Shown one piece after another: positions 2,106 through 13,312 of a DNA stretch of 64,000 nucleotides. Made by a program: the position numbers and the translations under genes. How positions within the stretch are numbered: position 1 is the first letter of the stretch; the number at the start of each line of letters is the position of its first letter. The DNA is from a virus (lineage: Duplodnaviria; Caudoviricetes). Under the pieces are notes generated by a model that saw nothing but the letters and a program-made list of their open reading frames with translations, was not told where the DNA came from and did no database searches. Where the stretch lies: IMG/VR virus record IMGVR_UViG_3300033074_000984; one strand, given 5' to 3'.

Positions 2106-2786
2106 ATGACCGGGCCAAAGTTCAGCCCAAGAGACAGGTTCATACTCGAGCTCCTACCGAAGCTCGACGGCGTGACTCGAGAGGACACGCCTGACGGCAG
2201 GTTCTATCGAGTTCCAAAGGATGACGGGACGAGCGGTCTCTATCCCAGCGTCACGACGGTGCTCGGGAGAACTGCAGACAAGAGGTGGCTCGATCGCTGG
2301 CGATCTCGAGTCGGCGATGTAGAAGCTGACAGGGTCTCGCACGTGGCTCGATCGAGGGGCAAGGCGCTTCACGAGGCGCTCGAGGCGTACGTCCTCAATC
2401 GCGACCTGCCGAGCATGATGCCTGACATAGCGGTAGACGTTGGCGCCGCTCGAAGAGCGCTTGACGTAGGGTTGACGCGAGTTTACGGCTCGGAGCACTT
2501 CCTCTACTCACACGAGCTCCGAGCAGCTGGCACGGCTGACCTGATAGGCCTCTGGGACGCCATGCCCGCCGTCATTGACTTCAAGACGGCTAAGGACGTC
2601 AAGCGAGAGGACGACATTCTTGACTACTTCATCCAAGCCACCGCTTACGCGTGGATGGTGGAGGAGCGGTACCAGATGCCGATCGTTAACGTCGTGATCT
2701 TGCTCATGAACGGATGTGCATGGCCACAGAAGATCGTTCGGCCAGTTAAGGACTACGTCAGTCTTGTACGGGATCGCTTCTCATGA
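2106..2786 (+). CDS. PD-(D/E)xK exonuclease (T4-like phage family)
   Basis: YPSVTTVL, RG..LH...E, AGTADLI, IDFKT and YFIQATAYA motifs. Confidence 0.85.
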   Translation: MTGPKFSPRDRFILELLPKLDGVTREDTPDGRFYRVPKDDGTSGLYPSVTTVLGRTADKRWLDRWRSRVGDVEADRVSHVARSRGKALHEALEAYVLNRDLPSMMPDIAVDVGAARRALDVGLTRVYGSEHFLYSHELRAAGTADLIGLWDAMPAVIDFKTAKDVKREDDILDYFIQATAYAWMVEERYQMPIVNVVILLMNGCAWPQKIVRPVKDYVSLVRDRFS

Positions 2787-3118
2787 ACATGGACCTCTCG
2801 ACTCTCTCTCCACGAGTCGCTCGGGCGGCGAAGTCAGCAGCGGCGCTGCTGTTGGGCGACAGAGCCAAGCGTATCGAGCTCAAGGCGCGAGCTCGTGGCA
2901 AGTCGCCAAAACTGTCCTATGACAGCACAGGACCCGCTCCGCCGGACAAGTTCCTGCTAGAGGTGCCCGCGCTCTTTACGGAGCAAGAGCAGGTGACGCA
3001 TCTCGTGTGCCACCTGGCGGACATAGCTCGCATACTCAATCAGTATAAAAAGGACTGGCTCGTGCCAGGAGTTGACATGTGGAGCCATGTCGTCGTAGAC
3101 GAGACCGAGGAGGAGTAG
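2783..3118 (+). CDS. Hypothetical protein
   Basis: ATGA overlap with the exonuclease gene. Confidence 0.5.
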   Translation: MNMDLSTLSPRVARAAKSAAALLLGDRAKRIELKARARGKSPKLSYDSTGPAPPDKFLLEVPALFTEQEQVTHLVCHLADIARILNQYKKDWLVPGVDMWSHVVVDETEEE

Positions 3119-3119
3119 C

Positions 3120-3884
3120 TTGCCACCAAAACTGCCGCTACTAGAACCGATAGCGACGAAGGACTTGTCCGCGCTTCGTGAAGCGGCCGCTCTTGCGAAG
3201 CAGCTCAGGACAGAGCTGCTTTACGCGACGCAAGAGGGAGTGACTCCTAAAGAGCTGGACTCTCTCGCGTCAGACTTCTGTAAGCGATCTGGCGCCAGGG
3301 CCGTCCTAAAGGGCTACAACGGGTATCCTGCAGCGATATGCGTTTCAGTGAATGACGCCGTGCTGCATGGGGTCCCCAGCGCGCGGCCGTTCAGCAGGGG
3401 CGACGTCGTAACGGTGGACCTCGCACTCAAACTCGGAAGGATGCACGCCGACTGTGCAGCCACGAAGGTGATAGGAGCCGGCTCTAGAGACGTCGAGAAG
3501 CTCGTGCAAGTCGCGCGTGGCGCAACTGACGCTGGAATAGCAGCGTGTAAAGCGGGGTCTCGAGTGGGTGACATCAGCGCAGCTATAGAGTCATACGCCA
3601 GGTTCCATGAACACTTGTTCATTAGAGAGTTTGGCGGACACGGCATCGGCCGGCGGCTGCACGCAGAGCCGACAGTGCTGTCGTTTGGCAGAGCAGGTAC
3701 AGGCGAGGTGCTCGTAGAGGGTCTGACGCTCACTATCGAGCCCGCTCTAGTAACCGGCGGCTCGACGTGGCGACTCGACGATGACGGCTGGACCATAAGG
3801 ACGGTCGACGGAGGCTTCGGAGCCCAGTTCGAGGAGATGGTATACATAGGCCCGAACGGACCAGAAGTTCTTACGGGAGACTGA
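3120..3884 (+). CDS. map: Type I methionine aminopeptidase
   Basis: GY.GYPAAICVSVN..VLHGVP, TVDL...HAD, GGHGIG..LHAEP, TIEP and QFEEMV: all five metal ligands (D,D,H,E,E) present; TTG start after GGAGGAG. Confidence 0.92.
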   Translation: MPPKLPLLEPIATKDLSALREAAALAKQLRTELLYATQEGVTPKELDSLASDFCKRSGARAVLKGYNGYPAAICVSVNDAVLHGVPSARPFSRGDVVTVDLALKLGRMHADCAATKVIGAGSRDVEKLVQVARGATDAGIAACKAGSRVGDISAAIESYARFHEHLFIREFGGHGIGRRLHAEPTVLSFGRAGTGEVLVEGLTLTIEPALVTGGSTWRLDDDGWTIRTVDGGFGAQFEEMVYIGPNGPEVLTGD

Positions 3885-10637: not shown

Positions 10638-10845
10638 CTCGTTCAAGTTGAAGAGGGGCGACGACGTAACGGTCATCACCGCCTCGCTCAAGAGTCGCTA
10701 TCCCGTGGCTGGAGTCGCTAGACGGCTCCTTCCATGCGGAGCTGTTGACGAGTGGGTGGGTCAGTGGATGCTCAACGGCACCTATCGAACCTACTCAGGC
10801 AGCGTTGCTGGCCTGGACATGATCTTGGAGAAGGAGCAGGCGTGA
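10624..10845 (+). CDS. Hypothetical protein, single copy of the repeat domain
   Basis: PGDSFKLKRGD...YPVAGV...WMLNG..LDMI. Confidence 0.55.
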   Translation: MSPGDSFKLKRGDDVTVITASLKSRYPVAGVARRLLPCGAVDEWVGQWMLNGTYRTYSGSVAGLDMILEKEQA

Positions 10846-11558
10846 AACTAGCACTCATATCAGACACTCACGGTCACCACTGGGGTGGAAGCCGGTTCGA
10901 GCAGGAGCTGATCAACGGCGTCGTCCGCGCTTGCGAGCGAGAGCGCCCAGACGTTCTCATTGACGCCGGCGACTACGAGACGAAGAAGATACACGACGCG
11001 GTCGAGGCTCTCAAGATCCCAGTCATCTCGATCACCGGAAACCACGACTATTACGGGTCAGCGTGGGTTGACAGGGACGAGAGCCTTGAGACGTGCGACG
11101 TGACGATTGGCGGCAAGCGGATCGTCGGCGCCACGCTATGGAGCAACTTCCGTAACGCTGACCCGCTGCTTCTACTTCAAGCAGAGAGCATGCTCAACGA
11201 CTTTCGGTACATCGTTGGCTTCACTCCGTACACAGCGCTTGACTTGCACTACAAGCACCTCGCGTTCTTGCGAAGTCGAGCCGGCGAGGCAGACGTCGTA
11301 GTCACCCACAACGGCCCGACCATGCGCTCTGTTCACGAGCGCTACGGCGACGTGCCAATGAACTACCTCTTCTCCTCACCTCTCGACAACCTCGTTGTTG
11401 AGATGGGAGCGAAGCTGTGGCTTCACGGGCACACCCATGACGATCACGACTACATGGCCGGAGACACTCGCGTGCTGTGTCACCCGTGCGGCTATCCCTA
11501 CGAGCGTCGTCAAAGGGGATTCGTCGGCTACGAGCCGTTGTTCTTGGAGATCGACTAA
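10842..11558 (+). CDS. Calcineurin-like metallophosphoesterase
   Basis: DTH, AGD, GNHDYY, VTH.GP and HGHTH motifs; GTG start after AAGGAG. Confidence 0.9.
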   Translation: MKLALISDTHGHHWGGSRFEQELINGVVRACERERPDVLIDAGDYETKKIHDAVEALKIPVISITGNHDYYGSAWVDRDESLETCDVTIGGKRIVGATLWSNFRNADPLLLLQAESMLNDFRYIVGFTPYTALDLHYKHLAFLRSRAGEADVVVTHNGPTMRSVHERYGDVPMNYLFSSPLDNLVVEMGAKLWLHGHTHDDHDYMAGDTRVLCHPCGYPYERRQRGFVGYEPLFLEID

Positions 11559-11573
11559 TAAGGCCAATTTCGG

Positions 11574-11602
11574 TTGACTCTCAAACTCGTTTTTGATATA
11601 AG
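11574..11602 (+). promoter_or_regulatory. Sigma70-type promoter of the tmRNA gene
   Basis: TTGACT-N17-TATAAG. Confidence 0.65.
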
Positions 11603-11604
11603 TA

Positions 11605-12010
11605 GGCGTGACGATCGGTGAGGCCGATACGCAATCTCAGAGGACCCGGGGGCAGTACCCGGCGCCTCCACCAAAGCCGTCGATAGAGGAGTAGTCGTCC
11701 TGCCAGGGACGTTACGCCTCGACAAGAGACACCGCGAGTCCGCTGGCACGGACGAACTGCACGTCCTCTCGCATAGAGAGAAGGAGCCGATCGATCGCGG
11801 GTCGGTCCCGGTTAAGCCCGGGTTGGTGTAAAGTGTCTTCGACGACTTTGGCGGGGGCGATGTAGGATCGACTCGAGATGAGGTAGAGGAAGAGGTCGTC
11901 GGGTGACTCCCTGATAGTCCGTAAACTAAGCGCCAACGACAACGACGCACCCGTGATGGCCCTTGCGGCCTGACGCAGCTCGGGGGAGCTGGGCAACAGA
12001 ATCCCCCACC
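11605..12010 (+). ncRNA. ssrA: Circularly permuted two-piece tmRNA (alphaproteobacterial type); outer ends approximate
   Basis: Acceptor piece ends CCGGG-GGCAGTA-CCCGG-CGCCTCC-A-CCA at 11673. Coding piece starts GGGGGCG at 11853 (G3:U70 pair), followed by TAGGATCGAC. Tag at 11932-11973 reads ANDNDAPVMALAA*. 3' end has GGCAACAGAA. Confidence 0.95.
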
Positions 12011-12032
12011 TATTTCTCTAGTGGAGCACATC

Positions 12033-12302
12033 ATGGCTACCGACTTCGTCGTTTGCGGCCGCATCGTAGGCCACTTCTACGCTTGGGACCAGATCGACGC
12101 AGACGTGATCGTCATCATCGGTCTCCAGCCGGTGCAAGAGCTCGGGCTCCCGCCAGGAGACACGTTCTTCGACTTCTATCACGGCACGATCACACAGCGC
12201 GTGATCGGCTCAAGGGATAACAGGGTCCTCGACCTAGTCGACGCTCTTTCTAAGCTGCCACGCGCCTTTCCGACGGACGAGTCGCCGCGCGATCAGAGCT
12301 GA
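12033..12302 (+). CDS. Hypothetical protein
   Basis: GGAG RBS before ATGGCTACC. Confidence 0.45.
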   Translation: MATDFVVCGRIVGHFYAWDQIDADVIVIIGLQPVQELGLPPGDTFFDFYHGTITQRVIGSRDNRVLDLVDALSKLPRAFPTDESPRDQS

Positions 12303-12785
12303 CGCTCCTAATGCAGAACACTCCAACCTTTTATGAGATACAGGACGCGCTGTCTTGGGGTCGCGAGCATGCACAACAAGTTGCTCGCCTAATCGCCACT
12401 GCTAACGAAGCTTATCCTCCGACAGGCTTCGATTGCAGCCGTCCTGAGGCGTGGAAGAGTGAGCACTGGAACTGGCTCAGGCTGTGGGGCTACCTTTGAC
12501 AGAGCTCCGTAACAGGAAGATGCAAGATGACTATGAACAACCAAAGTGAGCTCTTATCAGCCGTCGAAGACGGTCGCGCTCTAGTGTGGGAGCCAGCTGA
12601 CTCTGTCGTGATCGACGAGTACGACGGCGCGGACTGGCTCGTCAAGACTAACGGTGACGAGTGGAGAGACGTCTCGTTACGCGTGATGAGATCTTGGCAG
12701 CTTAGACACGAGCTAAGACCAGAAGTCGTTCGCGGTAGACCCATCTGGGTCGCTCGAATCAAAACCCCAAAATAGGAACATCGTC

Positions 12786-12986
12786 ATGGGTAGCTCTACC
12801 TCAAAGAAGGGCCGCAAGTGCGGTCGCATGAAGATCTGGTGTCAGGCCTACAGGGCTCGCAACCAGCGCGGCAAGAACAAGGTGCGGCGGCTCGAGCGAC
12901 GCGTCGCTCGTCATCCCAACGACGCGCGGGCGAAGCTCGACCTCAAGCGCTACACCGCAGCCGTCTACGGTCGTACTGTCGCGTAG
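12786..12986 (+). CDS. Small, very basic protein
   Basis: 66 aa, Arg/Lys-rich, with RRLERRVARHPNDARA. Confidence 0.55.
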   Translation: MGSSTSKKGRKCGRMKIWCQAYRARNQRGKNKVRRLERRVARHPNDARAKLDLKRYTAAVYGRTVA

Positions 12987-12993
12987 AATGATC

Positions 12994-13039
12994 ACAAGGG
13001 CGTCTAGTGTTCATCTTATGATGCATTAGACGTCCTTGT
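12994..13039 (+). terminator. Long intergenic hairpin
   Basis: ACAAGGGCGTCTAGTG ... CATTAGACGTCCTTGT. Confidence 0.55.
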
Positions 13040-13084
13040 TGCCTTGAGAGCACACTAAGCGCGTTAGCGTCACTTTGAGAGCAC

Positions 13085-13312
13085 ATGGCCGTAGCATCCG
13101 TAGATCCCCAGTCTGTCTTTGTGTCAGAGATCGAACGTCTAGTCACTGTAGACGGACTCGGTCTCGTTGAGGCCGTGCTGCACTGGTGCGAGACTCGCAG
13201 TCTAGAAGTAGACTACGCGGCCGGGCTCGTAAAGAAGAACAAGACGCTCAAGCGACTGCTTCGTGAAGAGGCGTTAAGACTTCACATGCTCAAACAAGAG
13301 GTCAAGTGTTGA
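13085..13312 (+). CDS. 33: Late-promoter transcription co-activator gp33
   Basis: F..EIE.LV......VEAVLHWCE....E....A.L.....LK..L.EEA..L.ML pattern; lies upstream of gp59 and gp32. Confidence 0.85.
   Translation: MAVASVDPQSVFVSEIERLVTVDGLGLVEAVLHWCETRSLEVDYAAGLVKKNKTLKRLLREEALRLHMLKQEVKC

Follow-up and report, generated by a model that had tools for sequence, protein, structure and literature searches.

What is carried by the segment that separates the two pieces of a permuted phage tmRNA gene, when that segment is longer than either piece? The question is raised by a gene in the window (the whole stretch of DNA analysed, 64,000 nt), which comes from a virus record of 161 kb that is ~95% complete (IMG/VR). 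The mature tmRNA pieces measure ~64 nt and ~158 nt, and the 179-nt intervening segment (IVS) between them exceeds both. The phage was typed as a T4-like myovirus via its gp6-type baseplate wedge protein. By this protein its closest cultured kin are Caulobacter phage Cr30, the Melnitz methylophages and pelagimyophage HTVC008M, at ~31-33% identity only, and a search of Cr30, the nearest cultured phage, found no tmRNA. A preliminary description of the window had proposed that the IVS is a highly structured RNA nested in the tmRNA gene and released by normal processing.

The tmRNA gene and the borders of its spacer

The window contains an alpha-type permuted tmRNA gene at 11570-12010 (+). Over this span the Rfam covariance models RF01849 (alpha_tmRNA) and RF04321 (tmRNA_permuted) score 99.2 and 90 bits, against gathering thresholds of 50 and 47, respectively, and ARAGORN calls a permuted tmRNA at 11580-12064 (+) with the tag ANDNDAPVMALAA. 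The tag ORF (11932-11973) encodes the peptide ANDNDAPVMALAA* and has the ALAA ending. In the model alignments the gene runs from acceptor piece to IVS to coding piece, and the acceptor stem pairs GGGGGCG (11853-11859) with CGCCUCC (11663-11669), including G3.U70 (G11855.U11667). Circularly permuted two-piece tmRNA genes of the alpha type were reportedly described by Keiler, Shapiro and Williams in 2000, and phage-borne two-piece tmRNAs are also known already (PMC9004378).

Both tmRNA models leave ~180 nt unaligned between the CCA at 11671-11673 and the GGGGGCG that begins at 11853. Because both alignments skip that stretch, the IVS is placed at 11674-11852, and the ARAGORN and Rfam alignments show that the borders proposed in the preliminary description are exact. 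A promoter-like element precedes the gene, but it is a weak call that a strict sigma-70 scan did not make. The features of the locus are collected in Table 1.

Table 1. Features of the tmRNA locus and of its IVS, in window coordinates.
Feature	Position	Strand	Basis
Promoter-like TTGACT, 17-nt spacer, TATAAG (weak call)	11574..11602	+	Read from sequence; 5' leader part of RF01849 match
tmRNA acceptor piece: T-arm, acceptor 3' strand CGCCUCC, discriminator A11670, encoded CCA	11610..11673	+	RF04321 and RF01849 alignments, ARAGORN
IVS, conserved structured RNA domain, 179 nt	11674..11852	+	Unaligned insert in both tmRNA models; R1 match to L133 IVS; covariation
P0 5' strand, pairs with 11840-11848	11674..11682	+	8 pairs, all paired in three sequences, 7 compensatory
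J0/1 junction (A)UA leading to G13; UAG motif common to window, L133 and L057	11683..11685	+	Structural alignments
P1 hairpin (GAGG/CCUC, GUA/UAC, CGUCCU/GGGACG); apical UGCCAG (11701-11706) is the kissing-loop partner	11686..11720	+	13 pairs, 6 compensatory
J1/2 junction GACAA (motif CGACAAG), identical in window and L133; GA-AA in L057	11721..11725	+	Structural alignments
P2 5' strand GAGACAC, pairs with GUGUCUU (11833-11839); closes multibranch core	11726..11732	+	7 pairs, 5 compensatory
P3 hairpin GUCCG-CUGGCA-CGGAC; loop 11743-11748 complementary to P1 apex	11738..11753	+	5 pairs; P1xP3 duplex energies
J3/4 with conserved AACUGCAC	11754..11765	+	Alignment, RNAalifold
P4 hairpin CUCUC-GCAUA-GAGAG; loop motif CAYA kept in window, L133 and L057	11766..11780	+	5 pairs, 4 compensatory
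J4/5 AAGGAG; GGAG kept in window and L133	11781..11786	+	Structural alignment
P5 hairpin CCGAUC-7 nt-GGUCGG	11787..11805	+	6 pairs, 2-3 compensatory
P6 hairpin CCCGG-UUAAGC-CCGGG	11807..11822	+	5 pairs, 4 compensatory, 100% paired
J6/2 UUGGUGUAAA; GUGUAA common to window, L133 and L057	11823..11832	+	Structural alignments
tmRNA coding piece: acceptor 5' strand GGGGGCG, tag ORF, 3' terminal hairpin	11853..12010	+	ARAGORN, RF01849 alignment

A fold kept by compensatory change

Folded by itself, the IVS has a minimum free energy (MFE) of -74.4 kcal/mol, compared with -63.5 +/- 4.5 kcal/mol in dinucleotide shuffles (z = -2.44), and 2 of 200 shuffles fold equally well. The control against shuffled sequences suggested in the preliminary description thus favours the IVS by a modest margin, and the thermodynamic signal of the segment alone is suggestive, not decisive.

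Stronger evidence comes from a homologous locus. The metallophosphoesterase encoded upstream of the tmRNA (P0001) led to L133, a Logan contig of 94.7 kb with an ortholog 45% identical, in which the gene order is the same as in the window (phosphoesterase, tmRNA and three small ORFs including a gp33-type coactivator) and the proteins are 45-59% identical. L133 has a permuted tmRNA with a 180-nt IVS and shows the same helices at the same positions in different letters. R1, a covariance model of 49 pairs derived solely from the window IVS, aligns over the full length of the L133 IVS with 50.4 bits and E ~1e-9 (742 kb searched; calibration rough). Two further models were built from the window and L133 (R2) and from the window, L133 and L057 (R3, see below).

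In the structural alignment of the window and L133, 46 of the 49 pairs are kept and 25 are altered on both sides yet still paired, although these counts, like those that include L057, are biased since the alignments were fitted to the structure model. When the 3' partners were slid by 1-3 columns as a control, only 1-4 compensatory pairs and ~40% pairing were obtained, whereas 96-97% of cells are paired over the two- and three-sequence alignments. All seven helices P0-P6 are supported by the comparison with L133, in which ten G.U cells favour the tmRNA strand. Three further lines argue that the covariation is not an artefact of alignment. The unconstrained MFE structure of L133 has P0, P1, P2, P3 and P4 at the same coordinates; RNAalifold, run on the two sequences, independently returns all helices, together with a UGCAC/GUGUA pairing that joins the two best-conserved junction strands; and ~140 other IVS-bearing loci served as a negative control.

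The distribution of sequence identity is also informative. Between the window and L133, identity amounts to 64-69% in the mature parts of the tmRNA and 50-52% in the IVS; within the IVS it is 40% in paired columns versus 69-70% in junction and loop columns. Stems that vary with compensation while junctions are conserved indicate a fold selected for function, since neutral decay would not yield that pattern. The conserved strands of the core are AACUGCAC, GGAG and GUGUAA.

In the predicted anatomy, P0 is stacked on the acceptor stem, P0, P1 and P2 meet in a three-way junction with the joiners UAG and GACAA, and P2 closes a core that contains P3-P6. The elements named in the preliminary description are all present in the sequence: the closing stem AAGCCGUCGA/UCGACGACUU that extends the acceptor stem, the GAGG/CCUC hairpin with its inner CGUCCU/GGGACG, whose pairs are kept with compensatory changes, the multibranch domain closed by GAGACAC/GUGUCUU, and inside it the hairpins GUCCG/CGGAC, CUCUC-GCAUA-GAGAG, CCGAUC/GGUCGG and CCCGG/CCGGG, every one of them supported by homolog comparison. 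The closing stem is lengthened further by pairing of the CCA (11671-11673) with UGG (11849-11851), so that it stacks on the acceptor stem, with 1 nt left ahead of the RNase P site. P0 and the 7-bp acceptor stem, with its G3.U70, together make up a quasi-continuous helix of ~21 positions in both the window phage and L133. P0 is seen in the MFE structure of both full precursors, which places the IVS as a closed domain atop the acceptor stem. A candidate 5-bp helix, P7 (UGCAC 11758-11762 with GUGUA 11826-11830), is predicted by RNAalifold in both sequences; it is unproven because its letters are invariant and give no covariation.

A third, weaker member was found with R2 when the filters were turned off. 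L057, a viral contig of 83 kb with no synteny shared with the window, gives a match of 14.7 bits (E ~0.003-0.005, rough calibration) at 2829-2978, which approximately covers the 152-nt IVS (2828-2979) of an alpha-type permuted tmRNA at 2722-3144 (89 bits with both Rfam models). ARAGORN does not call this gene, and can miss permuted tmRNAs with a long IVS. The layout of the L057 IVS is that of the window except for a short P1; of the 49 model pairs 31 are kept, 2 are broken and 16 are missing, and the UAG, GA-AAG, CAUA-loop and GUGUAA motifs are shared. An AACUGCA in L057 was considered as its J3/4 motif and rejected, as it is part of the P3 stem. With L057 added, compensatory pairs rise to 32 of 49, compared with 3-7 in slid controls.

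In each of the three sequences the P1 apical loop and the P3 loop are complementary, although the letters differ (UGCCAG/CUGGCA in the window, UAGCAGAAG/CUUCUGCUA in L133, UUAAGG/CCUUAA in L057). In the 3x3 matrix of loop pairings the cognate partners, at -24.5, -22.8 and -6.0 kcal/mol in the same order, form the most stable duplex of each row and each column; the window value compares with -8.6 to -14.0 kcal/mol for non-cognate partners, and perfect matches between non-cognate loops span just 2-4 nt. This covariation supports a putative kissing contact between the P1 and P3 loops in the three RNAs. In the window the same complementarity could instead form an alternative long helix, as the MFE prefers a long P1-P3 duplex (-74.4 kcal/mol) to the local hairpins (-65.0 kcal/mol). 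The complementary loops also support the membership of L057, and the family is taken to consist of two firm members (the window phage and L133) and one weak one. Described as a motif (IVS of an alpha-type permuted tmRNA; P0-P6; UAG, GA(C)AAG, CAYA-loop and GUGUAA; complementary P1 and P3 loops), the RNA shows all features in the window and L133, and L057 conforms with a short P1 and a weak score.

No known RNA family accounts for the fold. Searches with Rfam 15 (4227 models) gave nothing within the core of the window IVS at E up to 10, and the ribozyme, group I intron, riboswitch and sRNA models in that release matched neither the window nor L133 at the same limit. The best match for the window, Streptomyces-metK, is chance-level (18.8 bits against a threshold of 44) and overlaps only the 5' end of the IVS, and the L133 IVS gave solely a chance-level snoRNA match on the opposite strand. 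The Rfam scan proposed in the preliminary description therefore places the IVS in no Rfam family. Judged by comparative sequence analysis, selection maintains the IVS as an RNA domain of ~180 nt that folds independently. The separately folded RNA suspected inside the tmRNA gene is borne out as an evolutionarily conserved domain by the covariation, the RNAalifold result and the comparison with shuffles, and the test proposed for it, conserved structure with covariation in related tmRNAs, has a positive answer both with L133 (25 of 49 pairs compensatory) and after the addition of L057 (32 of 49 over the three sequences).

The early-region order common to the window (10752-13312) and L133 (3001-6166) is metallophosphoesterase, tmRNA, two small ORFs and gp33-type coactivator (PF16805); in Melnitz, ssrA is described as lying directly upstream of the coactivator (PMC9004378).

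Spacers of other tmRNA genes and the rarity of the family

The preliminary description had called the IVS short in Caulobacter. A short IVS is also seen in three typical alphaproteobacterial tmRNA genes (23, 37 and 38 nt), but a long IVS is not unique to this phage: the cellular outliers examined have 83-333 nt, and a pattern anchored on both tmRNA termini detected at least 119 viral contigs in which the IVS measures 150-180 nt. Full-length RF01849 matches in 151 sampled alphaproteobacterial genomes, a tally in which the unpublished genome G044 counts solely as part of the total, mostly span 283-400 nt, with nine above 400 nt; the match in the window spans 441 nt. In the phage HTVC008M the IVS is 49 nt.

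Most viral IVS of 150-180 nt are AT-rich and have a Shine-Dalgarno sequence and a start codon at their beginning, and a closing stem is common to all phage IVS types compared. In L006, L010, L012 and ~50 other viral loci an AT-rich IVS of 157-160 nt lies between CCTCCACCA and GGGGGCGA, begins with AAAGGAG and a start codon, and codes for a conserved peptide of 38 aa whose tail is hydrophobic (MKxPLVREVSKWMFKAYIVWSICADITLLAGLIYLVFF); the TGA of this reading frame overlaps the 3' end of the IVS, and a short acidic ORF lies upstream of the peptide. In the Methylophilales phage Melnitz the 142-nt IVS (inside 1541-1873 of the sequence used) has GGAG, 7 nt and an ATG ORF (MFKWLSKTRLVV...) that runs into the coding piece of the tmRNA. 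The glutamine riboswitch of the same ssrA locus (1926-1974, 52.8 bits) was considered as a precedent for an IVS RNA and rejected; it sits just downstream of the coding piece, 3' of the tmRNA and outside both IVS and mature tmRNA. Other viral contigs (L008, L011/L074, L019 and L079) have GC-richer IVS of 152-171 nt with closing stems and no obvious ORF; as they match none of R1, R2 and R3, they may hold further, unrelated non-coding cargos. In a cellular tmRNA gene on contig C23 of the alphaproteobacterial genome G110, the IVS is 333 nt long with 22% GC. It includes a ~100-nt segment twice (…TATATGATG.TTTTTTCA.TTATGTACTGATATGTACACA…) and may be a repeat or mobile insert.

Precedents for IVS cargo include a tRNA-Ala gene and a repeat element (tmRNA database, 2025; PMC11915505). 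The permuted tmRNA gene, the two-piece phage tmRNA and IVS cargo are thus all known, and a long cargo-bearing IVS is not new. A conserved structured non-coding RNA as the cargo is apparently undescribed; the literature searched describes no structured ncRNA within a tmRNA IVS.

Within the collections searched the family is very rare. R1 had no match at E up to 10 in other tmRNA-bearing viral loci, and R3 found no further members in ~140 tmRNA loci. R2 detected a single copy in the phage's own 161-kb genome, so that a dispersed repeat was rejected, and had no match in any of the 151 alphaproteobacterial genomes. DNA patterns based on the window motifs, scanned over viral, metagenome and genome collections, yielded no copies beyond L057: the 3 + 44 matches of a triple-motif pattern all lie outside tmRNA genes and were put down to chance, a CCA-anchored GATAG/GACAAG pattern and a closure-style pattern had no matches, and among the 9 + 77 matches of AACTGCA..GTGTAA..GGATCGAC L057 is the sole true tmRNA one. 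Six other contigs with phosphoesterase homologs (L134, L135 and L268-L271) have no adjoining tmRNA. The coactivator protein retrieved itself alone by word index, and exhaustive HMMER added P0123, 55% identical, on a 1-kb contig. The contigs L287-L289 have neither a tmRNA nor an R2 match, and the baseplate gp6 protein has no near kin in the viral contigs.

Possible roles of the spacer RNA

Maturation of the permuted precursor has been modelled with RNase P plus tRNase Z: the cut after CCA is probably made by tRNase Z, or by an endonuclease with subsequent trimming, and the 5' G of the acceptor stem is probably freed by RNase P, which yields a chargeable two-piece tmRNA (review PMC3985003). As the precursor must be cut at both places, the IVS is necessarily parted from both tmRNA pieces. 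We propose, at a probability of about 0.5, that the excised RNA is comparatively stable and is a second gene product that binds a protein or a small ligand. The IVS would make up the middle 40% of the tmRNA precursor transcript and be freed by the tRNA-maturation enzymes of the host, with RNase P acting at G11853 and an endonuclease plus trimming making the CCA11673 end. P0 would close both of its ends, and since P0 seals the ends of a compact fold the RNA should be comparatively stable; it would then most likely persist as a separate small RNA and bind its partner during infection. The cargo slot that supplies small protein genes in other phages would here supply a non-coding RNA. The analysis shows the fold, its conservation and its position; excision in one piece, stability and action in trans are inferred. 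The size of the domain is consistent with such a product, as 180 conserved nucleotides exceed what processing needs, given that cellular genes manage with an IVS of 23-38 nt.

The same conserved fold would fit a role in cis equally well, with the IVS guiding or gating the processing of the tmRNA precursor and being degraded after excision. The P0-plus-acceptor helix might be shown to RNase III or RNase P, the two pieces might be held until they have paired, or a P1-P3 switch might time the exposure of the CCA and the 5' end. The pairing of the CCA end with the UGG leader in a ~21-position helix that looks like an RNase III-type substrate, the presence of a closing stem in all phage IVS types and the two plausible conformers of the window RNA (the long P1-P3 form and the local hairpins) all speak for such a module. 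Cellular alpha tmRNA genes and HTVC008M, however, mature with an IVS of 23-49 nt, so that an eight-helix domain is unneeded for processing; unrelated ORFs fill the slot in other phages, which shows that it tolerates arbitrary content; and the conserved junctions and kissing loop suggest a specific three-dimensional shape, not a simple nuclease stem. We regard a cis-acting module as the main rival, possible but less probable than a stable second product. A more elaborate form of it, in which the IVS is a sensor or catalytic RNA that adopts either the kissing-loop fold or the extended P1-P3 helix depending on a ligand or protein, and in this way times the exposure of the CCA end and the RNase P site, seems unlikely. 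If it were true, the phage would turn on its own ribosome rescue according to the state of the infected cell, and this would be the first riboswitch-like control of a processing step of a stable RNA, inside a tmRNA gene.

Three other explanations carry much less weight. A functionless passenger, either the remnant of a mobile or repeat element or a neutral spacer that is hairpin-rich by accident, would suit the rarity of the family and the highly variable IVS content among phages, which includes the repeat element reported in one IVS (PMC11915505). It is quite improbable, as 25-32 compensatory pairs at 50% identity with junctions better conserved than stems are unlike neutral drift, the element is single-copy in the phage genome and absent from the alphaproteobacterial genomes, and no terminal repeats or target duplication are visible at the locus. 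A self-cleaving ribozyme that makes a tmRNA end itself, or a degenerate intron-like element, is slightly less probable again. The compact multi-helix fold, the conserved junction nucleotides, the loop-loop contact and the precise borders at both tmRNA termini would suit one, but RNase P together with trimming of the 3' end already accounts for the borders, the two ends of the IVS are paired to one another and form no local catalytic core, and no ribozyme or intron family was matched (see above). Cleavage by a ribozyme after CCA should moreover produce a cyclic phosphate end, which would prevent charging. Group I introns do occur in tmRNA genes, though in the T-loop (PMC11915505). A small protein gene, as in many phage tmRNA spacers, was rejected and is hardly credible: one frame is open across most of the IVS in the window and throughout that of L133, there are SD-like GGAG motifs and protein cargo is common in this slot, but no ATG, GTG or TTG lies at a workable distance from an SD, the peptides read from the open frames are unrelated, indels between the window and L133 are not multiples of three, and the variation is compensatory and concentrated in paired positions.

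Under the proposal of a stable second product, the IVS can be set beside several known systems. It resembles the IVS of other permuted alpha-type tmRNA genes (RF01849, RF04321) in lying between the encoded CCA and the acceptor 5' G, in being closed by a stem and in its removal by RNase P and a 3'-end nuclease; unlike the typical cellular IVS of 23-38 nt with no conserved fold, its 179 nt hold 7-8 conserved helices, conserved junctions and a putative kissing loop. With the small-protein genes in the spacers of aquatic T4-like phages (Melnitz and pelagimyophage-like contigs) it shares a stem-closed slot in which a discarded spacer carries a second product, but the cargo here has no start codon or conserved peptide and selection acts on base pairing. 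The rnaC and rnaD RNAs of the T4 tRNA operon (species 1 and 2 RNAs) owe their release to the tRNA-processing enzymes of the host. They are likewise RNAs of a T4-type phage (119-139 nt) that abut a tRNA gene and are without assigned function, but they flank tRNAs and are not inside a permuted gene, and they have no similarity in sequence or structure; homology was rejected, as R3 with filters off had no match on T4 70908-71171 (L290 4909-5172). In E. coli, the excised spacer 3'ETS-leuZ of the glyW-cysT-leuZ tRNA precursor reportedly acts as an sRNA sponge (Lalaouna et al. 2015). It too is a by-product of tRNA-type precursor processing with a function of its own, which for the IVS is proposed, but it is short, depends on Hfq and works through linear base pairing, and is neither multi-helix nor from a phage. 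Variable helices, invariant junction nucleotides and a loop-loop contact are also seen in junction riboswitch aptamers with kissing loops, such as the purine riboswitch, and Melnitz is an example of a phage tmRNA locus with a riboswitch, although one that lies 3' of the tmRNA and not in the IVS. Unlike the riboswitches, the window IVS matches no class and has no identified expression platform.

The spacer of a permuted tmRNA is usually treated as a throw-away, yet in one T4-like phage lineage it is an RNA selected for an elaborate fold. With the small protein genes that occupy the same slot elsewhere, this suggests that phage tmRNA genes are used as expression platforms, in which a strong early promoter and the tRNA-processing enzymes of the host would deliver a second product. 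The RNA would represent a new compact fold of ~150-180 nt with a testable kissing loop, and a candidate regulator tied to ribosome rescue; if it controls maturation of the tmRNA, it would add a new regulatory level to trans-translation.

A minor observation concerns the acceptor piece. The T-arm and acceptor 3' end (11641-11674, 34 nt) recur at 97% identity in Rhodobacter phage RcRudolph, within a gene annotated as hypothetical. The match may represent an attP-type core copied out of the tmRNA gene of a host, and is a hint that the host tmRNA is of a Rhodobacterales-like type.
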